A stretch of DNA of 60,837 nt, counting the filler, from Stramenopiles sp. TOSAG23-6 (taxonomy: Eukaryota), in assembly GCA_900128565.1 (NCBI GenBank). It is 3 parts of 3 records of this genome, joined end to end, with 100 filler letters (N's around TTAATTAATTAA, not from the genome) between each part and the next. Parts side by side here need not be neighbours in the genome. Positions count along the whole stretch, not along the records: positions 1 to 20,485 come from LT636037.1; positions 20,586 to 40,775 come from LT636040.1; positions 40,876 to 60,837 come from LT636042.1. One strand, given 5' to 3'. Under the pieces are notes generated by a model, which saw only the letters and a program-made list of their open reading frames with translations, ran no database searches and was not told where the DNA came from. Numbering within the stretch: the stretch's first letter is position 1; every line of letters begins with the position of its first letter. Below are positions 1 through 60,837 of the stretch, piece by piece. A program made the position numbers and the translations under genes.

Positions 1-53
1 AAAATTTCGTATGAAAAAAATAAATAAATTAGAAATTCATGATGAAAACGTAC
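1..53 (-). mobile_element. Introner-like intron, 5' part (fumarase)
   Basis: AGA CAT|GTACGTTTTCATCATGAATTTC...TTCATACGAAATTTT; interrupts the RLPRH-G motif; contig ends inside it. Confidence 0.85.
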
Positions 54-1100
54 ATGTCTTGGAAGTCTCACAACTCGGACATCATGACAAAAATATTTTC
101 CACCAAACTGGGCACCAATTCCCATCTGTTGAGTCAATTCATGCACACGAGACTCTAATTCCAAATCACGAAATGCACGACCACTCTCACTTCCAGTAGT
201 AGGTAAATTGTCTAAATATTTGATCGATGCCATTTTTACAGTTTTTAACGTAAGTTCAGCTGACAACCCTCCAATTACAATGGCTAAATGATAAGGTGGA
301 CATGCTGCTGTACCTAATGTTTTAATTTTTTCTTCAAGAAATTTCATCATCGAATCGGGATTGAGCAAAGCCTTTGTCTGCTGAAAAAGAAAAGTTTTGT
401 TTGCAGAACCACCACCTTTTGCGATAAATCCAAAATTATATTCCGAGCCTGGGACAGCATAGGTATCAATTTGTGCAGGAAGATTGCATCCCGTATTTTT
501 CTCGTCGTACATTGATAAAGGTGCAACTTGGCTATAACGTAAATTTGTTTCCGTATAGGTATCAAAAACTCCATGAGACAAAGCAGCTTCGTCATCAAAA
601 CCAGTGATGATATTATGACCACGTTTTCCAAAAACAATTCCCGTTCCCGTGTCTTGACAACCTGGTAATATAAAACCAGATGCAATGCATGCATTTTTTA
701 ATAACTCAAGAGCTACAAACTTGTCATTCGAAGTAGCCTCTGAATCATCTAAAATATTGCGAAGTTGCTGCAAGTGAGCCGGTCGAAGAAGATGTGCAAT
801 ATCACGCATAGCTGTAGAAGAAAGCAAACGCAAAGCTTCATATTCTATTTTGAGAAATTTCTCGCCATTTAAAATCAATGGAGTCACAAAGTCAGATGTG
901 AGCTTCCGATATGGCGTTGTTGAGGGTGCTGCCTTCTGAAATAGCGGTGAGTAATCAAATACTGGTACATTAGCACTTTTTGGTTGTGGAACTGCGTGAC
1001 GTCCATCGGAAGACTTCCTGGCTGAAAAAGAACGACTAGACTGAGATCTAGAACACAATTTTAATTGCCTAGAATAGCGCAAACAACTCCGTGGAAACAT
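54..1100 (-). CDS. Class I (Fe-S) fumarate hydratase, 5' exon (349 codons; gene continues off the window)
   Basis: Manual translation from ATG 1100 gives an R/S-rich presequence, then [61 protein letters not shown]. Missing from the ORF track because no stop is reached before the window edge. Confidence 0.95.
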
Positions 1101-1402
1101 TATTGTGGGTATTCTGTAGAAATAATGTTCTTCCGTACCCCTCGAAAAACACTATCCGAAAATAATCCAATGGCCAGAGGTACTACGCGAGTTGATTGTT
1201 TGTTTGACCGCAACCAGTTTTGAAACTTCGAATCGTATATTATACTAGGGTTAGGGATATACAGTATCATTGAAATGTAATAAAGATATTTCTATTTATT
1301 TTCTTTTTTATTCTGATGTTGTGAATTTGTGTTTGATGTTTCTATAAGCAGTCCATACAATGTCATGTGTTTTTCTTTTCTGAAAGAAATCAATTTTGTG
1401 TG

Positions 1403-2356
1403 TTATGCAAAATCTTTTATTGTTTCAAGTGGAATTCTTCTCACTTCAAATGGAACAGTCAGGAATTGTTCATCTACTTTTTGTTCTTTTTTTTGTTCTT
1501 TATGATTTCTTTTATTTCTAGGTTTTATTGAAAATGATACAGTATTTTTAGCCAAATCAATGACAGCTGAATGTCTCCATAACGCGTTCAATCCAATAAT
1601 AAAAGGAGAACATAGATTATGATCTACTATGAACAATGATATTGGAATAACCTTCAATTCACTCTGAGTTATACTAGGAAAGCTCAAGTTGGCTTTGTGT
1701 ACTTGACCAATTATTTCTGCACTCCCCATCCCATTACATTTTCCAGTAACTGATTTATCTATTATATCTGTCAAGAAACAATGTTTAGCACATTCTGAAG
1801 ACATCATGCACATCTCGGCCCCAGTATCAATTAGACCTTGGATGTGTCTTCCATTTATTGAACATGAAACATAAAGAGATGGCCTAGTTAAAGCGCTGCT
1901 ACCAAGAGATTGAATACGGCTGGCGTGTCTTTGTTTTAATATTGTATTCTCTGATTCATGTGATGCAATAATTTTATCAGCAGCTGTAACGGCGTCTCTT
2001 ATACCACTTGTTGCATCTTCCTCTTTTATGGAAGAGTGTGTAGCCTTTATTATTCTTGCTTCTTCTAATTGATTGCGATTCTTGGCTTCAGTTTTCATTT
2101 TTTCTGAAAACAATTCCGTAAGCGGTGCAACCGTATCAGCAAGGATAGCATTTGCCATTTGAGGGTCTGCATCCAGAAGATAAGCTAGTATTTCAGGTTG
2201 CGAAATTACCTGTCTCTGAAGCTCTCCAAGATCTAATAATAAAAAGTCCGGAAACACTAGTTTACCGTCTTCTAAATGAACTTGTGATAGCTTTTCGGGC
2301 GGATCAGGAGAAAATACAAGTGTGTTGACAGGTGTAGCAGACTGGCTTCTTTTCAT
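1403..2356 (-). CDS. DDI1-like retroviral-type aspartic protease
   Basis: LYVSCSINGRHIQGLIDTGAEMCMMS...GMGSAEIIGQVH...IIGLNALWRHSAVIDL matches the DDI1 RVP domain; no recognisable UBL or UBA domain. Confidence 0.8.
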   Translation of the reverse strand: MKRSQSATPVNTLVFSPDPPEKLSQVHLEDGKLVFPDFLLLDLGELQRQVISQPEILAYLLDADPQMANAILADTVAPLTELFSEKMKTEAKNRNQLEEARIIKATHSSIKEEDATSGIRDAVTAADKIIASHESENTILKQRHASRIQSLGSSALTRPSLYVSCSINGRHIQGLIDTGAEMCMMSSECAKHCFLTDIIDKSVTGKCNGMGSAEIIGQVHKANLSFPSITQSELKVIPISLFIVDHNLCSPFIIGLNALWRHSAVIDLAKNTVSFSIKPRNKRNHKEQKKEQKVDEQFLTVPFEVRRIPLETIKDFA

Positions 2357-14600: not shown

Positions 14601-17567
14601 CATATGCTTTCCAGTCACCAAGGCCTGTACTTACCTTGAGTTTTTTATTCGTTTCTCGAATCAGAAAGTGTATCCTTTTCCCCCCTTTGCGAATGAATCC
14701 ATATCGTTGTAATAAATACACATCATATTCGTCATTAAACTCTGTGACAGTTGCTGGTTTATTGCCATGTTGAAAAAGAGGTTCTAATGACCACTCATCT
14801 AATATTTCTTGTGTCAGTCTCAAATTAGTTTTCATTTTGTGAACAACGTCATTGCACTCAGATGTTTGATCCATACTTTGTGAGATAAAGTCATCTATAG
14901 CAGCACTCTTCCAATTTAAAGTCACTAGACCGGCTTCTAATTCCCGATCTACCTTTGAAAGTGCTGCTGCAACAAGGGGTCTCTCTACTGGGAGCAATGT
15001 CTTCTGCATCATATTATACATGTTAGCAACAAGTTGCAAATTACTAGTTTGTCGGCGAAATATTTCGGCTTTTTGGTGTATTTGCATGGCAGCAGATGGT
15101 ACGCTAAGTCCTAGTAAGAGAAAATACTTAATTTCACGAAGTATTTCAACTAAAGCAGGATCAAAGTTTACAAACAAATTTTTCAAATTGCGTTTAACCC
15201 CGTTCCCCCCGTGGCCATATATGGAATCAGTATCTACGTCATCATCGTCACAAACATAATCTCCCCATCTAAGAAGAGTATTTTTCAACATTTTCTGTGA
15301 AGACGATGCTACATTTGTGCCCCAATTTGCAAGACATTTATTCTCAAACTCTGATATGGAAGCAACTAAATTAGAATACAACTTCACAAGATTTAGCGCT
15401 TCATCTCGATCTAAAAGCTTCCCTCGCAATTGCCGTAATTGTGTCATAGGTCGCTCTATTCTATTTAACAATCCTTTTGACCATGCAAGTGCCCCAGCAA
15501 TCGGTGGATAATTATTTTCCACTGGAGGGGAGAGACGTTTATCAAAGAAGATTGTATTAACTAAACGCAAATCTGCATGGTATGAGTTAAGTAGCTCAAT
15601 ATAATTTGTCTCCATTTCTGTTTCAATTACAGGTCGACTCAAAAGCATAGAAAAACATTGCAACAGTTTAAACTTACTCATAATTGTATTTGTATCTTCG
15701 AACGACTTAGTCAACACACAACCAAGACGTTGCTCTAACTCCTTTACAGTCGTGCGGAATATGTAGAATGTATCATCGAAGGAACCACCATCAACATTAA
15801 GTAAGTCGGACGAAGCGACAGCTGAACTTGATTGCTCTCCAGATTTTGTACTATTTATTTCTGATTGATTATCATTATTCGCTTGTTCAGAATCATTTGT
15901 GTTACGTCCGAAGAAAGCAGATACACTTGATTGGAAATCGAGGTATATTTGATGAACTGATGTGGATAAAGTGTTTCCTCTAGAACCACCAATTTGAATC
16001 TCAGCCAATTCACTAAATTGAGCAACCGCCTGTACCAAATCTAGGACGTCATGGCATCTTTCCAAGAAGTCATCAAGACGCGTGAATAAAGCAGAATTGT
16101 TCATGATCCATGGATTCCGTGGACATTCGACCATTGATCGCGCCTTATAAGCAAAATAATCCGATTTAAATGTTCCGCAAATTTTGATTGTTTTTTTAAT
16201 ATCATCAATAGCTTTATGTTCCATTCGATTCTCTAACATATCAAATAGATTTGTGACATCTAGGAATATAGTAGCTTTTTCAATAATCATGTTACATATT
16301 TGTTTCACTATGACAACCATACGAGGAGGAGTATTGTAACATCGTGAATTCTTCCATATTAAAAGTAAAACGTGAACAACAGGTCTAAAATATGATGATA
16401 ACTCAGAAAAGTTGGATGTTTCCATTATACTAAACCATTTCTTTAGTGGTGACAAAAATCTAGCATTATCATTTGCTTCGGCACGAGATTTAAACACAGA
16501 CTTACAAAGTTTGGCAAATGATGAGTTGTAAGTACTCTTTGCATCATCCATGAAACGTAGAACTTTACGTATTCGGCTACTTTGTAACTGAACAAATATG
16601 GAATTTAAGTTTACAGCTTTATCTCGCCAAAAGTATAATTCAGTGAGTGGGCCAGGATGTGGATTATCTAAATCATTAAATGCATCTTCAGGATCTAAAG
16701 AAACATGTATTGCGGATATATATATAGATTTATATAAACGTTAGGTACGGAATTTGCTGCAAAAAGAATAAATTTGAAATATATGATGAAAACGTACAAC
16801 AATTTGCATTAATTTTGTCCATCGAATGACACATCCTTCAACTAAGTGTAGCATTTCTTTTTTGTCCATTCCCTTCAATTTTTTCGGAGGTTCTTTTGAT
16901 AGTAAAAATCCTGAGTTAGATATGTTTTCATTATATGTATTAGAATTGGTTGAATTTTTATGAGATGGACTTGATTTATTTTGATCCATGTCATTCTTTT
17001 TTTGTATGTAGTTCTAGCTGTCACATCTCCTTGTACAGCATCTAGTTGCGGTGGAAGTGGAAGACGAGTTTCCCCCAAAGTTCGACCAACAGTGACTTGT
17101 AAATCACCAGCAAACTTATGTGTATCTTCCATTACATTTTTGGCAATCATACTTGACCATTCTTCTTGATTTGCGGTGTTTTGTAGTAAAGGTACGAAAA
17201 TTTCTTGAACTTGTAAATCTAAGAATTGAAGTGTGTCCATGTTTTGAACGTCTCCATATAATACGAAGTTCTCCATATCCTTTAGCGTCGATACTTCTTC
17301 ACCCAAAATTTTATAGAATAACATAACTTTACCTCTGAAAAATGTACTTACTGTATCAATGACCTTTAGGTGACCTTTGCCGTCATAATCCACAATTTGG
17401 ATAAAACGCTGCTCTGCGTCGTCTAAGAAAGATGTCATGCGGGACTGAAAAGAATCGTTCTTTATAAAAGAAATGAATTTTTCATCGCGCATATACTTGA
17501 AAGTGTGCCGCATACGCATCGCCATCCAAGCAACTCTTTCATCTCCAGGATAATCTGGAAATGACAT
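2674..17567 (-). CDS. Axonemal dynein heavy chain, outer-arm beta-like; segments 17567-~16998 (frame break), ~16997-16798, 16704-2674
   Basis: P-loops GPAGTGKT, GPPGSGKT, GVSGTGKT, GVGGSGKQ; RLVITPLTDRCY, WGCFDEFNRI, coiled-coil stalk. The N-terminal tail VIRWTK..DPE..PGPLTELYFW is restored by removing 16705-16797. Confidence 0.95.
16705..16797 (-). mobile_element. Introner-like GT-AT intron, 93 nt (dynein)
   Basis: ATT GTT|GTACGTTTTCATCAT...TTCCGTACCTAAC...GCAATACAT|GTT TCT TTA GAT CCT GAA; the next AG is 10 nt downstream and out of frame. Confidence 0.85.
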
Positions 17568-18358: not shown

Positions 18359-18442
18359 ACATTCTTGGCGGAGTGGTCTATCGCGTAACGTTCAGGTCGT
18401 TATCCAGTTCTCTGGGCATGGGTTCGAATCCCATAGAATGCA
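18359..18442 (+). tRNA. tRNA-Leu(CAG)
   Basis: D arm TGGCGGAGTGGTCTATCGCG; anticodon stem TAACG/CGTTA with loop TT-CAG-GT; long variable arm; T arm ATGGG-TTCGAAT-CCCAT; acceptor CATTCT/AGAATG; discriminator A; T runs downstream. Confidence 0.9.
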
Positions 18443-20430: not shown

Positions 20431-20485
20431 ATGTATTGTAAAAAAAATTAAATTCGAAATTTGTTAGGTACAAAATTTCGTACGA
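20431..20485 (-). mobile_element. Introner-like intron, 3' part (GCP3)
   Basis: TCGTACGAAATTTTGTACCTAAC...ACAATACAT|A TTA ACC CTA GGA AAA AGC ATA AAC; truncated by the contig end. Confidence 0.85.
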
Positions 20486-20585
20486 NNNNNNNNNNNNNNN
20501 NNNNNNNNNNNNNNNNNNNNNNNNNNNNNTTAATTAATTAANNNNNNNNNNNNNNNNNNNNNNNNNNNNNNNNNNNNNNNNNNNN
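20486..20585. other. Artificial contig linker
   Basis: 100 nt: N run, TTAATTAATTAA (stops in all six frames), N run. Confidence 0.97.
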
Positions 20586-20640
20586 TCGTACGAAATTTTG
20601 TACCTAACAAATTTCGAATTTAATTTTTTTTACAATACAT
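20586..20640 (+). mobile_element. Introner-like intron, 3' part (ZW10)
   Basis: TCGTACGAAATTTTGTACCTAAC...ACAATACAT|G TCT CAC; identical to the reverse complement of 20431-20485. Confidence 0.85.
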
Positions 20641-40283: not shown

Positions 40284-40332
40284 TATGGAAAAATATCTCG
40301 TAGGTAGAATGATAAATAATATATAACTTATC

Positions 40333-40775: not shown

Positions 40776-40875
40776 NNNNNNNNNNNNNNNNNNNNNNNNN
40801 NNNNNNNNNNNNNNNNNNNTTAATTAATTAANNNNNNNNNNNNNNNNNNNNNNNNNNNNNNNNNNNNNNNNNNNN
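40776..40875. other. Artificial contig linker
   Basis: 100 nt: N run, TTAATTAATTAA, N run. Confidence 0.97.
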
Positions 40876-40960
40876 TGAAAAAATATTTCAAAAAAAAAAA
40901 CTTAAATTTGTTAGGTACAAAATTTCGTACAAAAACAAATTGAAAAAAAATAAAACATAC
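40876..40960 (-). mobile_element. Introner-like intron, 3'-truncated (VPS16)
   Basis: GCA GGT AT|GTATGTTTTAT...TTTGTACGAAATTTTGTACCTAAC...GAAATATTTTTTCA. Confidence 0.85.
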
Positions 40961-42625: not shown

Positions 42626-42928
42626 ATCGATCAGCTAATAGAAAGGTCCCTGGCAATTATTTATCTAATTAGAAGAGATATTTTTCATTCGAGATATTGA
42701 TTTGTGGTACGAGACGACCCTGTCAAATTTCCAAATGCCATTAAATTTTTGACTGCCTCAAGTTTTTTTTTTGTATTTTACGATCCGTATCCTTTTATTC
42801 TTAAGTACGGAATTTGGTACGAATTTTGTAGAGACGATCTGTGCCCATATCGATATTGATTCGTCAAATTTCAAAGATCTTACATTTTATTAAAGTTCCC
42901 CCCTTGCAATTGCATTTGTTTCAAACCG

Positions 42929-44719: not shown

Positions 44720-45063
44720 GTTGATCTAGTAAAAGGAAGTTTGTTTTGGAATTTGAATTTGGTTGTGTAGTATTGAACAAATAAATAAATTTTTTGATTT
44801 TTTACATTTGAAAAAAATTTTTCAATCGCGGACAAAACTGCTTTGTTTTTCCGTTTTTAAAAAGTAAATTTTGAAATAGTTTCAAAAAAAAACACAACAC
44901 ACACACGCTCTCTCTCTCTCTCTCCTAAACACGTAGTAGTACTGTACAGTATAGTGTATACTAACTATCTATTCAAATATATCCTCAAACCTAGTTCATG
45001 AAATCACTACGCCTGTGAATAAATAAATTATCACAATAGTATGCATACTCTTTTACACGCAGA

Positions 45064-48000
45064 ATGACAAGTAAAAATACTCTAAAACATTCTCAAGAAG
45101 AAGAAAAAGAAGAAAAAGAGGATATACAACTGCCCTATACTGTCGTCCACCAGTGTTTTTTCCCCGGCACAGCAGATTGGATTGATCAGTTTCTTGTCAT
45201 TGCAACATATGGCCATGATTCAAGCCAGCTAATGTTAGCTCTATTCGATCATCAGTCAGACTGGACTGAAGGAGTTATAGGTGCAATAACGTTAAAGAGG
45301 CGACTCTGTCATATATTTCGTATCACGCCGTTCTCATCTATTCGCTTTGTGAAGGACATGAGAAAATGTCTTGAATTTTCATCTGTTGACATTAAGGGTG
45401 TTCATAGACATGTAAGACTGAAGTCAACTGCAGAGACAGTGCTCCATGATACTCTGCGCGTGATAGATACAGCAATTCACATGACAATTAAATTTGAAAA
45501 CAAAAGAAATAAATTTTTAAAAGATTCGACAAATTGGATGCCGAATTTAACATATAAATCTGTTTTAGATGCTGATGAAGACAAAGAAGTCATATCTTAT
45601 CGCAAACTAGCAAAAGATTCGCCAATTTTCTATCATGATACTTTTTTTCATTTAGACGAAGGAACACAAAAACTGAGCCGATATATATATGTTTTATTTT
45701 TTTTCAAATTCGATTTTTTTCGTACGAAATTTCGTACCTAACGATTTTTTTTTGAAATATTTTTCCAAAATACATGAATATACCAGGAATGTGTTGCAAA
45801 TTAATATTTAATACTTTTCTTATCTTACTTTATATGTATCTTGCTATAGATTATTTTTCCCCAGTTATTTATGGTATTCACGCCGAATTTGCCTTGGCAA
45901 CGGCAACGTTTCTTAATGAAGCTTTTGGCGATATCCCAAAACTACATGATACTCAGAAGCATTCATCGCATCCACAAGAACAAAACTGGCCCCATGAAAC
46001 ACTTGAAATTCATACGATTGAAGATTTTTGGTATGATTTTGTCTGTACGTTTTCATTGTGTTTTTTTTTTTGTACCAAATTTTGTACCAAATTTTGTACC
46101 TAACATTTTTTTTAACCAAAAAAAAAAAATATATGATTCCACAATATATATTCGAGCTTTTACAAGCACACATTCTGGGCCGATATTGGCGAATATCCGT
46201 ATAGTGGGATGACTCGAAAGCAATTTTCGGATTTAATTCACTCTGTTGATTATCACAGCTTTTTTGCTTTCAACAATAAGCTTGTTGGTCGGGTTTTACT
46301 ACAACAACACAGACGACCATTAAAAGAGTGCCATCTTAAAATTGCTAGAAGATCACAATATGTACATTTTCATAATGAATTTCAAATTAATTTTTTTTTC
46401 ATAGTAAATTTCGTACCTAACAAAAAAATCAAATGTGTGACATATTTTTTCACAATACATGAAACTTGTCTAGAAAATGTAGATGATACAAGCCCTTATG
46501 GTAAAAATTTGAAATCTGCAGGAACATATTCAGAATATTTGAATTATGCCTATATGAACACAGCTTTCACGTTTACACACGCTGCAGAAGAAACCGATTC
46601 GTCTTTTTTTTATTGGTTCACACATTTATTTCTTTCAAGCCATTCTCATGGCTATATGATTGCACTCAATGTGACTGATTCCAATGCCGTGACTGGTAAT
46701 TATATACATGATGTAAAGCTAAAACATGGTAGTGCAAAAGTTCCATTGTTAGAGCAGTTACAATACTTGGAAGAAAATTTATGGGTCGATATTCAAACAT
46801 CTTTGATTACTATTAAGATGCCATTTAGAAATATTAATACAGGCATCACATCATACCTTGAAGTCATATTTGAATGGGATGAAGCAGGAAACTTGCACCC
46901 CATTATTAATGTAGCGCCATTTGTTGATCATGGACATGCAGAAAATCTGCAATTTTTTGCATGGACTCTATGCTGTATTATGATAACAATCAAATTCATT
47001 TGTATTTTATATTTTGAAATTCCTCGTGCATTCAATGCTAGTTTTAATTCACGCTATACACCAGGGGGGAGAATGAAAAATAAGGAGCCAGTAGTATTGG
47101 GTTCTCTAAGCATATTGATTTCTTTAATATATACCATGATTGTTATTTTATGTCTCTTTTTTTTACGAAGAAATTATGTAACAAACGACACACTATTACC
47201 TTTTAGTGATGCATATGAATGTAAATCCTTAGATCAAATTTGTGGTGATCCTCATAAAGTTGATAAGAATATATTCACGCATACCAGTGGTTCGAATTCA
47301 TATACACAAGTACATGTTGACTTAGAGGGACACGCAAGGACACAAAAAATTCAGTTTACAATGTTTGCAGTAGGTATTAGCATGTCATGTATATACATAA
47401 TGTTGTATGTGTATAAGATATTCGGGGCGTTTTTACTATTGTGGACTTTAGCACAGGCAAAATGGTTTTTTTTAATTGCATTGTGTATGATTGGTGTTGC
47501 ATTTGTGCCTATTAAAATATATACTGCAGAGTATGGAAAGCATTTACTATTTGAAGAACCTAGTTTTCATTCAGTAGGAATATTAGCAGATGGATTAGTG
47601 ACTAATGTTTCAGAGTTCACGGAACTTCATCCTGGAGATCCGATGAACTACATTATGATATATGCATTAGTTGTACTTACTATTGGAAGATTTTTAATCT
47701 TTGCGATAATGTATCGATCATATAGGCTGGCATCACGTAAAGCTAGTGAAATATCTACTACGCATTGGTATGCAGAAGACGAAAATGGGAAATATTCAAC
47801 GCTAATAGCTCTGAGAACATGTTTAGTTACACTGTTTTACTTTCCTCTCTTGAAACAAATTTTAGTACATCTAGTCCATGACCCGACTCTCAATATGAGT
47901 CAGTATATCAGCTATAGTCAACTAAAAAATATTGTTTTTGATTACGCAAGTGAGTGGTCACCAATATCATCATCATGTGGGATATTAAATCTTCAATTAT

Positions 48001-49382
48001 CTGTTACAACATTGACAAACTTAATAATGAAAGTTATGCCAGTAAAATTGAGTGCCGTACCTGGTGTTGTGGCATATCAAAAACTTCCCTTGAATAGCGA
48101 AAATGAACGTCGAACATTTACAATGTCATTAGAATCGGAACTACCTCTAAAATATAGCGCTCGAGAATTTGGAATTACTGATGATGTTCCAAACCCAGAA
48201 ATACGTGCAGTCTACAGTAGTAGAACTTTGAGCGGTTCCATTTTACATTCTGCAATGTATATTACTGAGATTGAGAGTGCCAAGAGAGTCAGAGAACTCC
48301 GTAAAACTGTTGACTTTCTATTGAGGCAGCATCAGCAGCAAAATTTCATGCTTAATTCAATACTTGAAAAATTAGGAAGAATACGAAAGAGATATATGAT
48401 GGATGAGAAAAATATTCCCTCATTGGTTACAAATAAATCGAGTGAAGTTGTTACAACAAAAGAATATGTTGAAGAGCATGATGTTCAAAGCAAAAGTAAA
48501 GAGAGAGCTATAAAACAAAGGTCAACCAAATATAATCCAAAGCAACTATCCAAGGATGTGAAAACGGAAGTTCAGGCAATGAATAATGATGGGACTGATA
48601 ACACAGAGGATATACTGATGGGTTATGAGCCGAGCAGAAATCAAATCACGAATGAATCAAAGAGTAGTACACCCAAATGTGTAAATAACAAAAGATTACA
48701 GTTTAATAAAGACAAGCAATATTCAGTAATACGTGAAAATAATGTCAGTAAACAATATCCAAAACATATTTCTACACGTCTTCCGGGTGACCAATATCGC
48801 CATCATAAATTAAAGAGTTATAAAAATGAATCAAGTCTACATTCTCCCCTGTCGGTGCAAAACAAGTGGAATGATTTTAGATACGATTCTGCATTTTTTG
48901 ATACGGCATGGCCTTTAATTGAAAAATCAAAACCATCAGAGAAAAATTGGGATAATTTATCAAAATATGTTACACTTACATCAACTGTAGGCGATTCCAC
49001 AAGCAATAATACAGATGCCATTGAAGAATTAAGTAAAACTGAGGGATTTCCTGTAAAACAAAAGAGTAAAAATGTTGCCACTTCGCTATGGAAAACAAAA
49101 AAAAGAAAGCAAATATCAGTTGAAGATTGGAAGAAACTTCCAAACGAACAACGCAGATTAATTATTTATGGAATACCTGAGATATTAATTGATTCTGTCA
49201 TAGATGTCCTATTTGATCTTGGATGGTATCGAGGTAGAGTTTCTACGTATAATCCATCCAAGACCAAATATGTAGTTGCATATTTTGATGGAGAGCAGCG
49301 AGAATTTGATATGAGAAATAATCGTTGGAAGTTTCAGTGTAAAAATGAAACCTGTACCAAAAAATGTATCTGTCCGCAATAG
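45064..49382 (+). CDS. Polycystin-2/TRP-like multipass membrane protein with C-terminal Tudor-like domain; exons 45064-45686, 45776-46044, 46150-46361, 46461-49382
   Basis: TM segment, IHTIEDFW, NKLVGRVLLQQHR, LQYLEENLWVDIQT..N.NTGITS....FE...AG, further TM helices; C-terminal GWYRGRVSTYNP..YVVAYFDGE. Confidence 0.65.
45687..45775 (+). mobile_element. Introner-like intron with AT donor, 89 nt
   Basis: CGA TAT AT|ATATGTTTTAT...TTTCGTACGAAATTTCGTACCTAAC...CCAAAATACAT|G AAT ATA. Confidence 0.75.
46045..46149 (+). mobile_element. Introner-like GT-AT intron, 105 nt, with triplicated 12-nt core
   Basis: GTC T|GTACGTTTTCAT...(TTTTGTACCAAA)2TTTTGTACCTAAC...CACAATATAT|AT TCG AGC. Confidence 0.83.
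46362..46460 (+). mobile_element. Introner-like GT-AT intron, 99 nt, in frame and stop-free
   Basis: CAA TAT|GTACATTTTCATAATG...TTTCGTACCTAAC...CACAATACAT|GAA ACT TGT. Confidence 0.85.
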
Positions 49383-49590
49383 TTAGTATTGATTTGTATT
49401 TTCGAAACTAAATAATGTAGTAGAAAATACTATGAAACCAAATAAATCAGAAAACGTAAAAAAACATTTTTACTTCATTTGTTTTATTTCTATATTGCAG
49501 CCTAAAAAGATGAACCAATAATCATACTTCTGAATACTGAAAATGGCACTTTTTGTTTCAAAATATTTTCGTATACAGGAAAATTATAGT

Positions 49591-51012
<1,422 letters not shown>

Positions 51013-51422
51013 CTAAAATGTAAATCTAATACCAGTACAACAAGAGTGTCTCGTCCCTAACTTGAATACTTTTTCAATTGTACGTACAAGGTTTATACAC
51101 ACTCGTTGTTCAACGTATCATCGTCGTACCATGCGCCCGGATTTTGGTACGAAATTTCGTACCTAAACCTTGGCTTGGCTTGCGCTTGAGTATACCTGCA
51201 AAAAATTGCGATGAATTCATGAACTCGAATGAACTTCGTCCCGCTAGAAGTGAAAACACTCATATTATTCGTATAGAAGTGTCATTGTTCTATAGCTGGA
51301 CAAAGTTATTGTTATATACTTTATTCAGAGTTCTTTTTGTATTGTTCATTTGAGGAGTAGTATCCTATTATTTGTTAATAATAGAATTAGCTTTAGAAAT
51401 TTAAAACAATCTTTTTGGAATC

Positions 51423-51807
51423 ATGGTAAGTCAACACTAACTTTTACAATCTAAAACCGCGTTATTGTAACTCATATTTGACACACGCATTACTAACAAT
51501 AACACAGTTTTATGAAATTCATTTTACATCACAGGCTTCAACAGAGCGTTTCAATGTAAATATCTCGCTTTCTAAAAACTGGGAGCACCTTCAGTCAAAG
51601 TATGTAGGAACGGGGCATCCAGATATAACGAAGTTTGAATGGGCAGTAAACCACCATAGAGATAGTGCTGCCTCTCACATCGGACACTCAGACTTATTAG
51701 CATATTTTTCTGTCGCTGAGAATGAGTCTATTAGTCGTATTAGGTACCGTCTCCTTGAGAAGATGGTTCAACCATGTGGTCCACCACCAGAAAAGGAAGA
51801 CGATTGA
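51423..51807 (+). CDS. SF3B5: Splicing factor 3B subunit 5; exons 51423-51425, 51535-51807
   Basis: ERFN..WEHLQSKYVGTGHPDITKFEWAVNHHRDS..MVQPCGPPP; canonical ATG|GTAAGT...TACTAAC...CACAG intron (an alternative in-frame AG lies at 51507). Confidence 0.93.
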
Positions 51808-52251
51808 GGACAAACGGCATGTCAAGAAGATTGTGCGCCGTACATTTTTATAAAACTATAGTATTTTTTCGTTAGTATGAAATTATTATTATTGATTTTA
51901 GTGTTATTAAAAAATATTACATAGAAGATACTGAGTTGTGAAGCAAATTATGCCCTTAAAAGGAATATATTGAACTATCAATACTTTTTGCATTATCAAT
52001 AAATATTTTCAGTACCCGTTACCGGGTAATTTGCCTTGGTGCTCGTTTGGTGTATTCTAAAGTACTACTAATAATTTTACATAAGAATCAAATCAACGTT
52101 ACATTTTTGTCCGAAAGTACGAATCTTTAGTTATACAGGTAACTCGAAGTATTTTATCTACCTATTAAAGTAAAACACGAGCTGCAAAATAAATTAAACT
52201 TGGCTTCTATTAGTATATTACTGCTTTATAACTTACACATTTAACGTTGGT

Positions 52252-54626
52252 ATGAAAAAAAAGAAAATAGTTAAACCTATTCAAGGTTCTGCTGCATGGA
52301 ATCGACGGAAGAACGGAGGAACCCCACAAAACTCTTCAAATACGAAAAAAAGGTTACTTCGTCCAAGTACATCACATGCAGCTACAAAAGCTAATCCTTT
52401 TAGTAATAATGTTCGACCACATACAGCAAATTCACGAGTATCCAAACATGGTGGGATTAAAGAGAAAAAGCGGCTAAAACTTTTACCTTGTAAATCTAAT
52501 GGAAACAATTCGAAATCAAAAGGTAAGCAATACTTTGAAGGTGAAGAAGAACTTCGGACCAAAATATATGACCTACAGAACGAACTGAAGGAAGTTTTAG
52601 TTAAAATGCGTCGAAGTGAGGTTGCCCGTAAGTGGCTTGAAAATGAATTGAAGCAAAGTGATTTACAGTTACAATCCGAAAAATATTCTGCAGGTGACAA
52701 ACAATTTGCTGAAATAATTGGAACTTTGGTAAAAGCACGAGCACGAATTAAAAAACAGGAAGTTGTTTTGGAACAACGTGATACTGAAATCCGTGATTTG
52801 AAAAATACTGATGCTTTCACACATCCTCGTGAACTAGAGATGTATGTTTTATTTTGTTTCAATTTCGAATTTATTTTTCGTAAGAAATTTTGTACCTAAC
52901 AAATTTTTTTTGAAATATTGTACCAAAATAAATTATTGCTGCAGAATATTTAAATGAAAATAAGAGACTCCTGGGACAATTAGCAGAAGCTCATTTAGAA
53001 ATAAATACATTGGAAAAGGAGTCAGATCAGCTTGTTGATCATATTAAAAGTCTTCAGTCAAAAGTTGCTATGTCAGAAGAACGTATTAAGTCATTCGAAA
53101 TTTCGGAACAAAATTCGAAACAAACTGCGAAATTTGCTTCAAAATCAAAAACATTTGTGACTCAAGAAAAATCTGGTGCATCCCCAGCTAAGATTTGGGC
53201 CGAAGTTACTGATTGTCGCAATGCTATTGCAGTTGCGGTAGAGTGTGAAGATTTCGCAGAGGCAGCTAGATTAAAAGAACGAATTTTAGAGTTATCTGGT
53301 GCCGAAGGAGAACAAATAATGCGTCTTAAAGAAGACGCTCTAGAGAAGCAGACAATAATTGAAAAGCAAAATAAGGAAATAACTTCACTTCGTCGTAAAG
53401 CTCTATCTCATCGAATGCAATTAGAAGAATATCAACGTACTGAAAGATTGGTTAAGGGTGAAAAATCTCCGGATACTGCCGAGATTCTAGATCAACAATT
53501 ACGCCAAAAAAAGCTTCTTCGTACATCACCTCTGAATGGAAATTCTGAGGCCGCTCGGCAACGTTTTAGAGAGGAACAAGAAAGACGTAAGAAATCAATT
53601 GCTGATTTTCAAAAGCAGAAAAAAAAAAGTCAAGCTGCCGAGCGTAAGCTGATAAAGGATGGCAATAAACGTCGCCGTAAGATGGAAAAACGATGGGCAG
53701 AATTTGAAAGAGAGAAACAAATGAAAATACAAGCAGCATTGGATGAGCGAGAACAACAAAATAAGATGCGCTTTGGGGAACATAAAAGCCGTTTCCAGAG
53801 GGCTAAACAAGAGCAGGAAGCATGGGGGAAAAAAGCTGAAGAAGATTTTATTGAAGCCCAAAAACGAGTGTCTGATATATCACAGATAAAGATGCGTCGT
53901 GCAAAGGAAGCATTAAAGGAACCTGATGCTTTAGATGTCTATGCACTCAAAGCGAATGGAAAACGTTTAAGTAATGATCAGGAAAAACTGTTTGATTTGT
54001 TAGAGGAGAAAAAACAAATTACTATGCTAATGACATCAGATGCAGTGACAGTTGCAATGAAAAGAATGAAAATATTGAAATCACCAAAAGGCAATCAAAC
54101 TTCTGAAAAATCAAGTGCGTGGAATATAGTGAAACATCAAATCAACGATAGGATAAATCAAGCTTCTATAAGTGAAGTGGCCAAGAAACGTGCCCAAAGA
54201 AGACGTGATATCGTAATGCATATATCAGATATACAAGATCGTATTGAGAGACAAATGTGGCATGAAAAACATAATAAAAACCTGTCAGCTCTTCAGTGTA
54301 AACAGCAAAATGAGAGAAGAGCAACATCATTAAAAATTTCTAAGTTGAAAGCAGAGACAGAGCGTAACCTAAAACAAGAAGAAATTCTTGAAGAGAAAAG
54401 GAGGCAACAAAAGGTCATTGCAAAAAGACGATCTGATGAACGCGATAAGCGTAAACTACAACGTTTAAAGGAAGAGGAACAAAGAAAATTAGCTGAGAAT
54501 AAAATGAGACATTCATTAGTTCTAAGGAAACAGCAAGCAATGCGTGATAGAGATGCCCATTTAATGAAACCATTTCCAAAGAGAATGGAAACTAAAAGAA
54601 ATGGAAAACGTGTGAAACAGAAGTGA
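52252..54626 (+). CDS. Coiled-coil protein with a UVR-like motif; exons 52252-52841, 52934-54626
   Basis: K/E/R/Q-rich heptads; AVECEDFAEAARLKERI; removing 52842-52933 joins the ORFs in frame. Confidence 0.7.
52842..52933 (+). mobile_element. Introner-like GT-AT intron, 92 nt
   Basis: GAG AT|GTATGTTTTAT...TTTCGTAAGAAATTTTGTACCTAAC...CCAAAATAAAT|T ATT GCT; the CAG at 52944 leads to an early stop. Confidence 0.8.
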
Positions 54627-54704
54627 TAAAATTAACAATTCTTTTTTTTATTTGTTTTTTATTTTTTATAAAATCTCCTGAAAAGAATTTTTACAATTGA
54701 AATG

Positions 54705-56258
54705 TTATGGTTCATTCGAAAATTCATCCTCGAGATCTAAATCTTCATCAATGGATATCTCTCTAATGCTACCATACCTCCTCCTTAATCTAATAGGATC
54801 AACTTCCTGATTATCCTCATCAATAGCAGTGGTTCTTTCTTTTATATTATCAGTATCTTTCACATTATCAGATTTATTCAACGGTTGCACATTAGGGTTA
54901 GGGCTACTAGCATCCGCTTCTTCTAATACTATTTCATCAACTAAAGGGGGTTCATATTCAAATATTGGATGAGATGATGTCAAATGTTTAGTACCCGCAA
55001 TAAGAGAATTTAGTCTAGATTCAGCTATTACTATATCATCTGGTTGTTTTGGTTCTTGTAGTTCTTGTGGTGTAGGGTTAGGGTTTTGCTTTTCTTTGTT
55101 AGTATTTTCTGTAGTATTTACTATACTATTTTGCGGTGTAGAGTTTTGTTTTTCTTCATCACTATTTTCTATTATATTTTCAATACTATTTTTTTCATTC
55201 GAAGAAGTTGGAATGATTTGAGTTGACTCTCCCCTATTTTGAATCCTCAATTCATCCCCAATTCGCCAATCATTATACCAACCACATTCCTGAAGTTTAG
55301 AAGTGACATTAGCTTTTGCTATTTCTAATTTATTCAGTTTTGCTTCGACGTCACTTTGTGGCAAATTTGTAATTTTCTCTTCTAGCATTTTGCACATCTT
55401 TAGTAAAGAAACAACTTTCTTGACCTTATTTGTTGCGCATGTGTCGCTCGTCATTAATCCATTACTTTCTTCTTCTTCAGTAGCGACAGTATTCTGTGTT
55501 GTTGATGTTTCTTTTTCTTCAGTAGCGGCAGTCTTCTGTGTTGCTGATGATTCCCTCCCGGAGTAAGGATAAGCAGGAGGAGGAAGTTCTTTCTTTTTCA
55601 TTGTATGTTTATAGAGTGGTGGTGGGGGTAGTGTTTTATTCAATTCCCTTTTTGTAGGATTTACTTGAAGTTTTTTTTCTAAAGCACCTCCAACTGCTGG
55701 ATCTGAGAGTGCAGCACGAAGCTGTGATGTTGCTTCTAAAGCTAACTCTGAATTCTTTTTTCCAGTTGGAGGCGAGGAAGGTTCATCTGTGTCAGAATTC
55801 CCATGATCAGACGTTGTTTTAGCTTTTGGAATATTTTTATTTTGCATCAATATCATGCGCTTGAGACCTCGAACACTTTCCTCAAGTACCTTAGAGCGCT
55901 TAGTCCAATATGATAGTAAACCTTGTTGTTTACGCGACGCTTCCTCAAGTCCACGAATTCTATCAAGCATTAACTGAAATATTTCTTCATTATCCCCTTC
56001 AGCTATAGATATACTATTATTACCTTTCCCACCAAACCCTAAGAGACCTTTATCCCGAGCACGTAATTTTACTTTGCCTTGTCTCACTTTTGTTTTAAAA
56101 CCTATTTCACTAAGAGAATTTGTTTCGATGAGGTGTACTAAAAGTTCACCATCTACCTTATTCTTACGAATAGCAGCCGCCACAGTTCGATCATGCCTAG
56201 CGTTAACACCTAAACCCTTTAGCATTTGAACAATGTCTTCCACATCATACGTTGTCAT
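54705..56258 (-). CDS. Protein with N-terminal SAM-like domain and low-complexity tail
   Basis: YDVEDIVQMLKGLGV....IRKNKVDGELLVHL....LSEIGF. Confidence 0.65.
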   Translation of the reverse strand: MTTYDVEDIVQMLKGLGVNARHDRTVAAAIRKNKVDGELLVHLIETNSLSEIGFKTKVRQGKVKLRARDKGLLGFGGKGNNSISIAEGDNEEIFQLMLDRIRGLEEASRKQQGLLSYWTKRSKVLEESVRGLKRMILMQNKNIPKAKTTSDHGNSDTDEPSSPPTGKKNSELALEATSQLRAALSDPAVGGALEKKLQVNPTKRELNKTLPPPPLYKHTMKKKELPPPAYPYSGRESSATQKTAATEEKETSTTQNTVATEEEESNGLMTSDTCATNKVKKVVSLLKMCKMLEEKITNLPQSDVEAKLNKLEIAKANVTSKLQECGWYNDWRIGDELRIQNRGESTQIIPTSSNEKNSIENIIENSDEEKQNSTPQNSIVNTTENTNKEKQNPNPTPQELQEPKQPDDIVIAESRLNSLIAGTKHLTSSHPIFEYEPPLVDEIVLEEADASSPNPNVQPLNKSDNVKDTDNIKERTTAIDEDNQEVDPIRLRRRYGSIREISIDEDLDLEDEFSNEP

Positions 56259-56479
56259 TTTATTTACTATATTTGCTGTGTAGAAAAATGTTGCATTTCG
56301 GTTTTCTCAACAAGAATTTTTAGAGTTTTTCGAAGTTCCAGCAAATGCCAAAATTTTAAATTTAGGTCCTAGTACACGAAATAAATCAAGGAATTTAGAA
56401 TTCCTAAATTTTGAGGTGAAAAAGAAAGGACAATTATTTTTCAAATTTATTTGAAACTTTGTCTTCTTAAAAAAACTGA

Positions 56480-57778
56480 CTAACTGCAATGAAGGTCTAC
56501 CCTCTCCATACCTCGTTTACTATATGCTTGTGCCTTTCTAATATAATAATTCCCAATCACTCTTTGAGCATAGTATTGCGCATTTACATTGAAAAATATG
56601 ACAAAATCGAATTTTTTTTAATGAAGTCTCAAAACGTTGGAAGGAGTATTAGGTTATATAGGAATTTAAACAAATCTGAAAATTAAAAAACGTACATTGA
56701 AGTTAACCACAAATAAAGAAGGGAAAAATAGATAAAATGGCATAATATCCGACTCGGGGGTTCCTGGATATGGACTTGACCAACACATTGCTGCAATAGT
56801 ACAAAACATTGTAATACCTATTATGAAAAAATATGTCAAATTTGAAATTCGTTAGTTACAGAATTTTCATAGTAAAACAATTAAAATTCATGGGAAAACA
56901 TACCCGGTCCCCTAATCCAGGTATTAATACTACAGTTAATGCGCTTCTCTGTCATTGTATTAATAGTGCCTTTTTTTACAGCTGCAAGCAAAAAGTAGCT
57001 GATCCCACCCGATGTAATATGAACAATATGTTGGCAGTTTTTGAAAAAGTTAATATGGAAAAAACAAACTTCAAAAGCACTGTATGATTTGTAATAAATA
57101 TTAAATAAGTAACCCAGAAATGAAGAAACAGAGGAGATTTCCACAAGTACCCCAAGGGTAACAAAATCGAACTAACCCAATCGTTGGTACAAAGAGAGCA
57201 TGGTGAAATATATCGTTTGCATCTAAATTGAATCCTAAAACATGATAGATATGAATTGCAATTATCATAGAGGGAGCCCAGTCTGTGCAAGCAGGAAAAC
57301 TCAAAGTCTCACAACGTGCAGCACTAAGTGCTTGACCAGGTTCTTCAAATACCCAATAAAAATCGGGTAATGATAAACCTGCAGCGATCATGTTTCCTAG
57401 TGCGTGTAGTAGAAACCAACGGCCGCTAGAATTATTACGAAAAATGGGTTTGCAGATACACAAGTCCATCAAGAAAAGTGGAAGCATAGAAAAAGCAACT
57501 GCAACTGCTACTCCAGCTACGTCCTGTGATGAGATTGGCAATCTATAGAATGTGCCAATATCATAAAACATATTTGGAATCGATGAAGGAGGAACACCAA
57601 ACACAAAAATGGTTGAAAATACCGTCAACAAAAAATACGACACTATTCCAAAAATTATTCCAAACAATGACTTTTGACTCTTGGAGTCACGGAAAGTTAT
57701 GGGCTTCAAAAAAGTGCGACTCTGGGTAGGACCCATCATTGTCTTTGCCAAACGGTCATAACTGGAAACTCTTTTCAT
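56480..57778 (-). CDS. TLC (TRAM/LAG1/CLN8)-like membrane protein; exons 57778-57109, 57011-56904, 56817-56696, 56581-56480
   Basis: RWFLLHALGN, IAIHIYH, DIFHHALF, spliced FFISGLPGGISY, EKRIN..INTWIRGPG, FNAQYYAQRV. Start uncertain (57778 or 57964). Confidence 0.8.
56582..56695 (-). mobile_element. Introner-like GT-AT intron, 114 nt, diverged (TLC gene)
   Basis: TTC AAT|GTACGTTTTTT...AACCTAAT...CATATTTTTCAATGTAAAT|GCG CAA TAC TAT. Confidence 0.75.
56818..56903 (-). mobile_element. Family member with canonical GT-AG ends, 86 nt (TLC gene)
   Basis: CCG G|GTATGTTTTCCCATGAATTT...CTGTAACTAAC...CATATTTTTTCATAATAG|GT ATT. Confidence 0.8.
57012..57108 (-). mobile_element. Highly diverged family intron, probable TT-AT ends, 97 nt (TLC gene)
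   Basis: GGG TTA C|TTATTTAAT...ATATTAAC...CATATTACAT|CG GGT GGG gives SGLPGGI. Confidence 0.55.
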
Positions 57779-58086
57779 TGTGATGAAATAGAGAGTCTGT
57801 CTCTGAGTAATTTGAATGGATTTACCTAATAAGATCGACCTGCCAATTGAAAATATGATATTATCATTTAGGATGAAGGCCGAAGGTAGTTTTCTTTGTC
57901 GTGTCAGTTCCCTTGGTGCCAGCGCGAGCGATGACACGTGGCTGTCAAAAACATCATGATTCATATTTATTATGTCAAAAGGTCAAAAGGTAGTGCAGAC
58001 TGTCGCACCACTACACGTTATTAAACTTTGAAGGATGCGATATATTGTATAGCCTCTGTTGCTACAGGTGTTTCCTTTATAAAATA

Positions 58087-60512
58087 ATGAACAATACTAG
58101 TATAATTTCACCAAATTGGTGTCCTGGATTATGGCCGGAACAGAAGGTTATGTATCTTTGTTGCTGTCTCCCACTCAATAGCTTCTTTACTTTTGCTGAA
58201 GTTAATGGCATGAAGCGAAAGGTTGCACTTCAACTTCGTGTTGATCTTCTTCGGAGATGTCCGAATGTTTCTTCAATGATATCAGCAGAGGGTGCTCAAC
58301 GTGTTTTACATAGTGAGTTCTACGAGAAGGTTTCTTTGTTGTTGTCGTCACTATTAAAAGTTGACAACCTCAAAACATTTGGACCTTCAAAGATTTCCAT
58401 GTGTCTCGCACTTGAACTCGTTATGAAATACTCCGTCAATGTCAAGGGTGAAATCATTGAAAAGGATATAGATTTTTCACAAAATATATTCTCTATGATA
58501 TTTTGCGATTCAAATATCCTACTTGAAGCTACTTCCGAAAAAGACCGAAACATTAGAACAATTAGAAAACTTCATTGCTTATTCCTAGGTACTAGTAGAT
58601 CTGATATTGCTCTCATACTTGCTCATACAATGCCATGTATGTTTTTATTCCGAGTTTTCTTTATTGCTTACATTGTAGTATCCTTTTCTGTAGCTAACGA
58701 ATCTCAAATTTGACATTTTTTCACAATACATGCAACATTTTACGTATAATGATACGATATTTTTGTCGTGATGAGGTCAGTGTAAGTGATGACGTACATA
58801 TTTCTTCCAAATTTGCATCTATTCAAATCGACGATTCTGTTGAAACTGTATGTTCTTTAGAAAGAAAGAGGAAATTTATCGCCGCGGTTCATTTTGGTAC
58901 GGTTCATCTCCGCAAACTGAAATGTGATATATGTACGTTTTCATTATCATTTCAAATTTATTTTTTTTTTCGTACGCAATTTTGTACCTAAGAAATTGAA
59001 TTGTTTTTTTGAGTTTTTATTCGATACGTTTTTCATTATTCATTTCAAATTTATTATTTTTGTACTACATTTTGTACCTAACGAATTTCTTTTATATCAA
59101 AACAGAAATACTTTTTTACAAAACTGCTCGTTTAGAAACTGATGCTATTTCACACATGAAAGATAGTAAGAATGACAGTGCAGATGTTGATATCCGAAGT
59201 CGCCAAAGGAATACTACAAATAAAGCGTTAGAGGTATTAGAAGCATCACGTTCTATAGGAGCAAGTCTTTCAGAAACACTCGCAGGTTTGTTCATGCGAA
59301 ATCCATACCTAATTTTTGTACATAATAGATATAATGTAAATAATGAAAATAATGAAAGTGAATTATATGTCTCTGATACAAATGATACAAAACAGATATC
59401 TGCTTCTCTCAATTTTGAGCAGTCAATTTTATCTGAAAAAAATATAGAAATGTATAAGAAAAAAGAGTGTAAGAAAGACGCAGCGATCATTGCTGTTGAA
59501 CTTTTAAAGTATTCTATTGTATGTATGTTTTATTTTTTTTTTTAACAAAAAAATCGAATTTTTTTTCGTACGAAATTTTGTACCTAATGATTTTTTTTTC
59601 AAATATTTTTCCAAAATACATACTACCAAAATTCTGTATCCCAGGCAATGAAGTCTGGTGGTCGTGTATATCGTGCGTCATATGCGCGCTTAGATTTAAC
59701 TCGGCGAGAACTTTGTCGTTGGGTCAAAGAGAATCTCCCTTCGAAACTTCAGTCAGCTTTGGAACAACTTTCAATTGCATATATTCATGCAGGTTGTCCA
59801 GATGAAGCTGAAGAGGCGAGAGCGCGTGCAATTGATATTGCTAAAATAGAATATGTATGTTTTATATTTTTTTTTTTAACGAAAAAATCGAATTTATTTT
59901 TCGTACGGAAATTTGTACCTAACAATTTTGTTTTATATTTTTTTTGAAATATTTTTCCAAAATACATGAACGGAGTTGTTTAAAAGCTGGCGACTCTGTT
60001 GAAGCCCGAGTCAATTATGATATGTTGTATTACACAGCTATAATAAAGCGACGTTTTTCCGATGGATGTTTTGAACTCCTTTTTGAAGATGATGTAATTG
60101 AAATGACTCCACCTCAATGGGTGAAGCCTTTGGGACGCTCTATCATTTGGGAAGGTGATGAAGTACAGGTATTAAATGGAACATATGCCATGTGCGTTTT
60201 CATCATGAATTTCTAATTTATTTATGTTTTTCATACGAAATTTTGTACCTAACATTTTTTTGATTTTTTTTTTTTTTTGCCATGTGCGTTTTCATCATGA
60301 ATTTTTGAATTTATTTTTTTTGTATGAAATTTTGTACCTACTCTGTCTTTTGTAACATATCTAACGAATTTTGAATTTGAAATATTTTTCTACAAAATAT
60401 GGATGGCCTTCCGAGTCCTGCTAGACTTTTAGTATTTCAATCTTCACCCCAATTATATCAAAGTGCAGTTGTGCTCGATAAAGCAGGAAAGAATCCTATT
60501 TTACCTAGTCAT
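58087..60512 (+). CDS. Multi-exon hypothetical protein with a Tudor/Agenet-like domain; 3' end uncertain
   Basis: ORFs 58045, 58710, 59009, 59648 and 59944 join in frame after removing family inserts; LKAGDSVEARVNYDMLYYTAIIKRRFSDGCFELLFEDD. Confidence 0.55.
58637..58731 (+). mobile_element. Introner-like GT-AT intron, 95 nt
   Basis: CCA T|GTATGTTTTTAT...CTGTAGCTAAC...CACAATACAT|GC AAC. Confidence 0.8.
58933..59126 (+). mobile_element. Tandem dimer of the element; 3' end unresolved
   Basis: ATA T|GTACGTTTTCATTAT...TTTTGTACCTAAG, then ATACGTTTTTCATTAT...TTTTGTACCTAAC...TTTTACAAAACTG. Confidence 0.65.
59523..59621 (+). mobile_element. Introner-like GT-AT intron, 99 nt
   Basis: GTA T|GTATGTTTTAT...TTTCGTACGAAATTTTGTACCTAAT...CCAAAATACAT|AC TAC CAA. 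Confidence 0.85.
59855..59967 (+). mobile_element. Introner-like GT-AT intron, 113 nt
   Basis: GAA TAT|GTATGTTTTAT...TTTCGTACGGAAATTTGTACCTAAC...CCAAAATACAT|GAA CGG. Confidence 0.85.
60192..60400 (+). mobile_element. Tandem dimer of the element (60192-60283 and 60284-60400)
   Basis: GCC AT|GTGCGTTTTCATCATG...CCTAAC...TTTGCCAT|GTGCGTTTTCATCATG...CTAAC...CAAAATAT|G GAT. Confidence 0.75.
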
Positions 60513-60613
60513 GTACGTTTTATTTTTTTTCAAATTCGAATTTTTTTTTATAGTAAATTTTGTACCTAACGATTTTTTTAGAATTTTTTTTGAAATATTT
60601 TTCCAAAATACAT
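60513..60613 (+). mobile_element. Introner-like element, 101 nt; flanking frames do not join
   Basis: AGT CAT|GTACGTTTTAT...TTTTGTACCTAAC...CCAAAATACAT|TAGGT. Confidence 0.8.
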
Positions 60614-60822
60614 TAGGTCGACGACTTGCCGCAATTGGACATGTAAATGGAACTGTTGATATATTCGATCTTGACCGAATTGAATATAAAAATGAAAAAC
60701 CAATTCCTCGACAAACATTTTCGTTAAAAACGTGGTATTTTAATGATTCTGTCACAGGAGCTGTAAGTGCATTAGACTGGACTTTCGACCAATCTGCGCT
60801 CGTAGTAGGTTTTGAAAAACGT
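60614..60822 (+). CDS. Exon of a WD40 protein resembling RIC1
   Basis: RRLAAIGHVNGTVDIFDL..FSLKTWYF..TGAVSALDWTFDQSALVVGFEKR. Confidence 0.55.
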
Positions 60823-60837
60823 GTATGTTTTATATGA
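60823..60837 (+). mobile_element. Start of another family intron at the window end
   Basis: AAA CGT|GTATGTTTTATATGA, the same first 15 nt as the copy at 28695. Confidence 0.7.

Follow-up and report, generated by a model that had tools for sequence, protein, structure and literature searches.

Can a eukaryotic genome routinely remove introns that end in something other than AG, a 3′ splice-site signal that is among the most constant in eukaryotic gene expression? The question is raised by a 60,837-nt stretch of DNA from Stramenopiles sp. TOSAG23-6 (GenBank assembly GCA_900128565.1; the whole stretch is called the window here), which consists of three ~20 kb pieces joined through two 100-base spacers (20486-20585 and 40776-40875) and carries a family of short, related, intron-like inserts in about twelve genes. 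The inserts start with a GT donor, contain a branch-like motif and mostly end in AT, and the frames and conserved protein sequences of their host genes support removal at exactly these ends and not at nearby AG dinucleotides. We propose, with a probability that we put at about 0.65, that the family consists of non-canonical introns derived from introners, in a variant whose acceptor ends in T.

The word CCTAAC is mildly over-represented in the window, occurring 19 times on one strand and 15 on the other where ~12 would be expected, and the contexts of these matches reveal a single family. An nhmmer profile built from 14 window copies and searched over the window returned 28 matches at E<1e-3: 27 fall within family copies, and the other, at 51142-51166, is a fragment of 25 nt. 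Once one degenerate copy and a 15-nt 5′ stub at the end of the window are included, the family totals 27 loci in ~12 genes. These divide into 19 complete single copies spanning 86-117 nt, two compound or tandem copies, one degenerate copy and five copies truncated by piece or window ends, and all 27 lie in sense orientation to the surrounding open frames. The alignment yields a consensus of GTAYGTTTT, a variable T-rich part, TTTTTCGTACGAAATTTYGTACCTAAC, a T-run and GAAATATTTTTYCAMAATACAT, with copies ending CAMAATACAT. Among the complete copies, here named by their first coordinate, the 5′ end is GT in 18 of 19 (AT in copy 45687), and CTAAC is present in 18 and the longer CCTAAC in 15, with CTAAC lying 33-45 nt from the 3′ end. 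No AG was seen from the branch motif to the 3′ end in 15/19, one of these 15 having CTAAT and an unscanned tail. At the family-defined cut, 16 of the 19 end in AT and the others in GT (19552), TT (19766) and AG (56818); counting every visible 3′ end by family alignment, AT accounts for 20 of 24, the remainder being these three and the ambiguous compound copy 58933. A first-pass annotation of this DNA had described 28 inserts in about 12 genes, all in sense, with a GTAYGT start, a CCTAAC motif, a CAMAATACAT end and AT at 21 of 25 visible 3′ ends. Its gene number, orientation, motifs and predominance of AT stand; profile and alignment correct its two counts to 27 and 20/24, and the consensus profile that it proposed to build gave, when run on the window only, the 28 matches above. 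Pairwise identity among copies has a median of 0.69 (range 0.55-0.93), which indicates that the copies are old, not young, while the host genes are intact.

To evaluate the cut, the ends of each copy were fixed by the family alignment and we asked whether removal joins the longest upstream and longest downstream open frames. It does so in 18 of the 19 complete copies (binomial 3e-8 against 1/3) and likewise in the compound copy 60192-60400. Taking instead the first AG past the branch motif, a yeast-like rule, gives an in-frame and stop-free junction in 6/19, which is chance level, and retention would shift the frame or reach a stop codon in 17/19, the exceptions being copies 26020 and 46362. 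Protein homology and motif spacing place the cut at six junctions. On the minus strand of the VPS16 gene, copies 41530-41629 (GT..AT, 100 nt) and 41659-41760 (GT..AT, 102 nt) flank a 29-nt micro-exon (41630-41658) placed by the VPS16 alignment, and the protein assembled from the family cuts aligns without gaps to 12 relatives across both junctions. The GCP3 gene, also on the minus strand, contains copy 19552-19651 (GT..GT, 100 nt), the diverged copy 19766-19882 (GT..TT, 117 nt) and copy 20034-20127 (GT..AT, 94 nt), and its product is gapless against two plant GCP3 proteins across all three junctions; for the last of these copies, the range searched offers no GT-AG pair that keeps the frame. 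In the FHA-RING gene, cutting copy 35245-35346 (+, GT..AT, 102 nt) at the family ends restores the invariant RING spacing H-x2-C-x2-C, and moving to the next AG costs 13 residues. Every in-frame GT-AG alternative listed at these six junctions changes the length of the protein by 2-22 residues. A further copy in the outer-arm dynein heavy chain gene (16705-16797, -, GT..AT, 93 nt; exon ending TT) joins frames of 72 and 4676 codons at a junction beyond the reach of the PDB alignments, which begin 4-13 residues past it. The gapless VPS16 and GCP3 products and the regained RING spacing bear out the earlier observation that exact removal restores conserved motifs, including the RING motif CGHSLC. 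Its companion claim, made for the cases checked, that nearby AGs are out of frame or delete conserved residues, agrees with the first-AG count and with the residues changed at these junctions; some nearby GT-AG pair keeps a frame open in most copies.

Frames define where the family is cut only up to certain equivalent shifts, and the ends could be read as GT...AT or, with the cut moved two bases upstream on both sides (from the exon-side AT to AATAC), as AT...AC. The upstream exon ends in AT in 12/19 copies, and there the two readings yield identical mRNA. Copies 28695, 41659 and 46045 each permit few shifts, and the sole offset common to the three is zero; in 41659 and 46045 a two-base shift alters synonymous bases only, so that protein data cannot tell, and in 41659, where the exon ends in TT, no AT-AC or GT-AG cut yields the same mRNA. 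The AT...AC reading can further draw on the pairing of A with C that is known for the ends of AT-AC introns. We nevertheless favour GT...AT because seven of the 19 copies have no upstream AT, so that their 5′ ends would read TT (three copies), TC, CT, GT or GG; because GTAYGT would otherwise fall at +3 to +8, out of register for pairing with U1 and U6; and because the ordinary intron 1 of the FHA-RING gene ends in CAATACAG where the family has CAATACAT. In U12-type introns the donor is RTATCCTT and the branch site, TCCTTRAC, sits ~10-20 nt before the 3′ end; the family differs in its GTAYGT donor and in a branch motif that, at 33-45 nt, is too far away, and AC 3′ ends would be available in only ~12/19 copies. 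Removal of the family as AT-AC introns is, on this evidence, decidedly unlikely. The GT-AT label of the first-pass annotation thus gains from the seven copies without upstream AT and from the position of GTAYGT, and is tempered by the 12/19 copies that read equally well as AT...AC. The donor hexamer and CTAAC of the family are of the same type as in the window's three ordinary introns.

A repeat at the insert borders suggests where the unusual acceptor comes from. In 14 of 19 copies the insert closes with the same dinucleotide as the exon before it; these include copy 19552, with GT/GT, and copy 19766, with TT/TT. Non-AT insert ends accompany non-AT exon ends (Fisher 0.036). This covariation suggests that the acceptor derives from a target-site duplication, and the simplest reading of the 2-nt border repeat is that it is probably such a duplication. 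The last base is T in 18/19 copies, which suggests that only insertions yielding a terminal T are spliceable. Both the match between terminal and exon dinucleotides and the proposed origin by target duplication are new beyond the earlier annotation. In the mechanism that we propose, a short, non-autonomous element resembling a miniature inverted-repeat transposable element (MITE) would have spread into many genes and would survive only in sense orientation because the spliceosome removes it there. The element would bring a U2-type donor (GTAYGT), a branch site (..CTAAC) and a T-rich tail ending in AATAC, and the two bases that follow, usually AT, would be one copy of the 2-nt target-site duplication. 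Splicing would then remove the element, from GTAYGT to AATAC, together with that one copy, so that the 3′ junction would fall after T (CAT, TAT, once CGT and once CTT) and not after AG. We infer spliceosomal removal, the GT...AT cut in place of its shifted equivalent and the duplication origin of the dinucleotide from sequence patterns. A more specific form of the proposal, which we regard as evenly poised between right and wrong, holds that the major spliceosome of this organism would routinely ligate exons after U: introns would run GU...AU with G+1 facing U-1, the conserved AAUAC context would pick the site over downstream AGs, and the 2-nt duplication would supply the acceptor, so that any NT target would be spliceable. 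Such behaviour would imply relaxed or dual 3′ splice-site recognition in the host.

Sixteen public sequencing runs contain part of the stretch, and we compared positions 40876-60837 with one run of an independent seawater metagenome (X3) and three metatranscriptome runs. Contigs from X3 span the whole of insert 58637-58731 (+, GT..AT, 95 nt) and enter copies 45687, 52842 and 58933 at the same sites; the inserts are therefore genuine genomic DNA. In DNA and RNA runs alike, bins that contain inserts exceed unique bins in summed depth by a factor of hundreds to thousands, a ratio that is not a copy number but fits a high-copy family. The idea that the repeats are artefacts of assembly or amplification could appeal to the construction of the window from three spacer-joined pieces, to piece ends that lie inside copies and to the identical 3′ halves of the two copies flanking the first spacer, which are in opposite orientation; with four inserts spanned or entered at the same sites by an independent DNA run, insert 28695 recurring on another contig and a further copy on a metagenome contig (L003), we find it scarcely credible. 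Copies occupy both ends of the window and three of the four piece ends that adjoin a spacer, the pattern that a high-copy repeat would leave if it interrupted assembly.

Several observations weigh against the proposal of introner-derived introns with a T-ending acceptor. The exon and insert dinucleotides differ in 5/19 copies, so the putative duplication is not clean, and inverted terminal repeats amount to at most 4-6 bases. No empty sites were found in a scan of JGI metagenome proteins, and a motif scan for relatives or empty sites gave four loci, of which one is a true copy (that on L003), and none on viral contigs. No transposase is known for the element, and exon ligation after U has no known precedent in U2-type introns that start with GT. 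In the three metatranscriptome runs on 40876-60837, no exon-exon joint across an insert occurs among the joints listed, which are cross-copy joins, the repeat having drawn thousands of contigs; RNA contigs on exons are short and thin (151-374 nt, depth 2-15), and the RNA runs also carry insert sequence at high summed depth, a signal that may come from unspliced transcripts, from carried-over DNA or from other copies. No cDNA-derived proteins of the organism were found: a search with VPS16 exons gave distant relatives only, and one with exons of a tetratricopeptide repeat (TPR) protein gene gave a single 99% match, P0171, itself a read-through call on a DNA contig holding insert 28695. For the earlier statement that this organism routinely splices at NAT, frames and homology make such cuts probable, and the RNA runs have no clean insert joint among those listed.

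The remaining adverse points are also those that would favour the use of ordinary GT-AG sites nearby, or the retention of inserts as recent transposon hits in dying genes. A GT...AG pair within 30-45 nt keeps a frame open in 16/19 copies. For copy 60513-60613 (+) the family-defined cut breaks the frame, which is kept instead by a GT 5 nt upstream paired with an AG 3 nt downstream, and no PDB relative was found for its host gene. In copy 56818-56903 (-, 86 nt) a G replaces the C of AATAC, giving a canonical AG that lies two bases short of the family end and is apparently used; this assignment is tentative because all three downstream frames are open, so that it rests on the next intron, the degenerate family-like insert 56570-56695 (-, GT..AT, 126 nt), being in frame, as it is only if copy 56818 uses its AG. 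Copies 26020-26115 (96 nt) and 46362-46460 (99 nt), both + and GT..AT, are multiples of three whose read-through meets no stop. Such explanations must nevertheless accommodate the chance-level performance of the first-AG model, alternatives at the six junctions that gain or lose residues, among them cysteines of the RING and conserved positions of VPS16 and GCP3, copies that are diverged and yet sit in host frames intact up to 4676 codons, sense orientation in 27/27 loci and the same inserts in an independent sample, and we consider them unlikely. We judge as similarly improbable that the inserts leave by a route other than the spliceosome, whether by structure-guided RNA excision as in euglenids or by DNA elimination as in ciliates. 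Eliminated sequences of ciliates are bounded by TA and absent from somatic DNA, and many ciliates have reassigned stop codons; the ends here are not TA-bounded, and the inserts are present in bulk environmental DNA. A non-canonical 3′ end and short direct border repeats do recall such systems, as far as the available part of PMC11282704 describes them, and the insert ends share a short GTAT/ATAC complementarity, but the consensus has no conserved fold (-0.05 kcal/mol; its three pairs surround the branch motif and none joins the ends), and the canonical 5′ end and branch motif are common to ordinary introns. A search for conserved RNA structure in Rfam gave a tRNA only.

Comparison with known systems, drawn for each cited paper from the part of its text available to us, places the family closest to introners while separating it from each described case. 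Introners in Micromonas, Aureococcus and the wider class share with it many short copies in unrelated genes of a marine protist host, splice signals borne by the element and one splice site apparently derived from target-site duplication (PMC11282704, PMC12130899). The co-opted duplication there gives a canonical AG (PMC11282704), whereas here it gives AT, GT or TT; the duplication here is also 2 nt long, the inverted repeats are barely detectable and splicing is predicted from sequence. Set beside the features by which introners are recognized, the window contains 27 similar copies in ~12 unrelated genes, all in sense orientation and with GT and CTAAC each in 18 of the 19 complete ones, removal at defined junctions is predicted from frames in 18/19 copies and homology at five junctions, with no joint across inserts among the RNA joints listed, and the transposon hallmarks are a 2-nt border repeat in 14/19 and an inverted repeat of ~4-6 bases, with no empty site found in the scans above. 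Relative to canonical U2-type introns, the family has a GTRNGT-type donor and a YNYTRAY-type branch site, and an AG 3′ end in 1/19 copies.

The MITE-derived introns of Fritillaria borealis likewise reflect mass gain and take their 3′ end from a duplicated target, and AT acceptors occur among them, as AG-AT (PMC11282704, PMC13326754). Their 5′ end is also non-canonical and most escape GT/AG altogether, in contrast to the present family, in which donor and branch are yeast-like, only the last base departs and ordinary GT-AG introns stand alongside. Amoebophrya introners and the nonconventional introns of euglenids are alike in being repeated elements with direct border repeats and non-AG ends (PMC11282704), but there both ends vary and clear inverted repeats or end-pairing structures are present, and the source reports no detectable U1 in Amoebophrya; here the donor is canonical and no structure is conserved. 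AT-AC introns of the U12 and U2 types also have non-AG acceptors, and an AT...AC reading fits 12/19 copies, yet donor, branch motif and branch distance misfit the U12 type and 7/19 copies cannot be AT-AC. Three established classes do not fit the family: the U12-type intron on its donor and branch distance, the euglenid nonconventional intron on the lack of end-joining pairing and the canonical 5′ border, and the ciliate internal eliminated sequence on ends that are not TA...TA and a 4688-codon frame that is open under standard stops. No GT-AT introner family, and no canonical donor and branch site combined with a T-ending acceptor, was found in the parts covered of full texts including PMC12130899, PMC11282704, PMC5778133 and bioRxiv 2020.10.15.341214, supplements and subscription journals being outside the scope of this search.

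If routine ligation after U is correct, GU...AU would constitute a third natural class of U2-type intron termini, created and dispersed by a mobile element. In such a host, hundreds of AT ends would share one canonical donor and branch site and occur beside AG introns, so that the choice of 3′ site and the second catalytic step could be tested directly; the system would also show how far a transposon can lean on target duplication for its spliceability. Gene finders that demand AG would mis-annotate every host gene, the read-through open reading frame (ORF) P0171 being an example, and introner surveys that start from annotated introns, as the available text of PMC12130899 describes, would overlook such families.

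The three ordinary GT-AG introns are located in the eIF1A gene (27476-27661, -; GTACGT, TGCTAAC, ending ACAG), in the FHA-RING gene as intron 1 (34245-34421, +; GTAAGT, ending ACAG) and directly past the start codon of SF3B5 (51426-51534, +; GTAAGT, TACTAAC, ending ACAG). Frame confirms all three, with the conserved protein start or domain kept, in agreement with the first-pass annotation, which named ordinary introns in these same three genes alongside the family elsewhere in the window.

The other complete copies lie on the plus strand. Copy 25731-25825 (95 nt) joins frames of 319 and 395 codons; copy 28695-28785 (91 nt), in the TPR protein gene, follows an exon ending in TC and is the insert also contained in a read-through ORF of another DNA contig; copy 46045-46149 (105 nt) follows an exon ending in CT; and an independent DNA contig begins inside copy 52842-52933 (92 nt). 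These four are GT..AT, as are copies 59523-59621 (99 nt) and 59855-59967 (113 nt), both placed by the frame test. The frame test also places copy 45687-45775 (89 nt), which has A at intron base 1 and reads AT..AT, or AT..AC if shifted by two. In the compound copy 58933-59126 (+), which has an internal tandem duplication, an internal AG leads to a stop codon and an in-frame end reads TG. In the second compound copy (60192-60400, +, GT..AT, 209 nt) the unit duplicated in tandem takes in the final five bases of the exon as well as a rare GTGCGT donor, leaving two candidate donors. The truncated copies are the 5′ part in the class I fumarate hydratase gene at the window start (1-53, -), the 3′ part in GCP3 (20431-20485, -) and that in ZW10 (20586-20640, +), which both end in AT at a piece end, the 5′ part in VPS16 (40876-40960, -), also cut by a piece end, and the 15-nt 5′ stub at the window end (60823-60837, +). 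Outside the window, the additional copy on the unrelated contig L003:1-3221 (3.2 kb, GC 0.35) is in frame and GT..AT, and the GTAAGT donor of a probable ordinary intron lies ~70 nt downstream of it.

Within the alignment, the flanks of GTACCTAAC covary (columns 89 and 102), reading T/A in nine copies, C/G in six and T/G in four, a pattern that could mark a subfamily or reflect a 3-bp stem around the branch motif. Between TIP49 and SF3B5, in the region 51080-51200 (+), a GTACGT precedes the 25-nt fragment of the family core (51142-51166), which may be a decayed copy or part of an intron in the 5′ untranslated region.

The window as a whole is AT-rich (GC ~0.30-0.42), gene-dense eukaryotic DNA that uses standard stop codons, with a longest open frame of 4688 codons, and in each of its spacers a twelve-base all-frame stop linker separates two blocks of 44 N. 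Pfam and PDB matches name genes for class I fumarate hydratase, a DDI1-like aspartyl protease, ZW10, a RabGAP, the TPR protein, FHA-RING, sybindin-family, EGF-repeat and DnaJ/SAP proteins and TIP49, a PDB match identifies the dynein as an outer-arm beta heavy chain, and VPS16 and GCP3 were also identified. The top relative of the VPS16 product is a EukProt protein at 62% identity, and named relatives from a pelagophyte and a cryptophyte stand at ~41%; the host therefore appears to be a marine protist of unsettled placement. A tRNA gene lies at 18359-18442 (+) between the dynein and GCP3 genes (Rfam, 48 bits). The dynein heavy chain frame slips by one base in an A-run at ~16990-17010 (-), between two long open frames, and since no intron signals occur there the slip is probably an assembly homopolymer error or a genuine frameshift.

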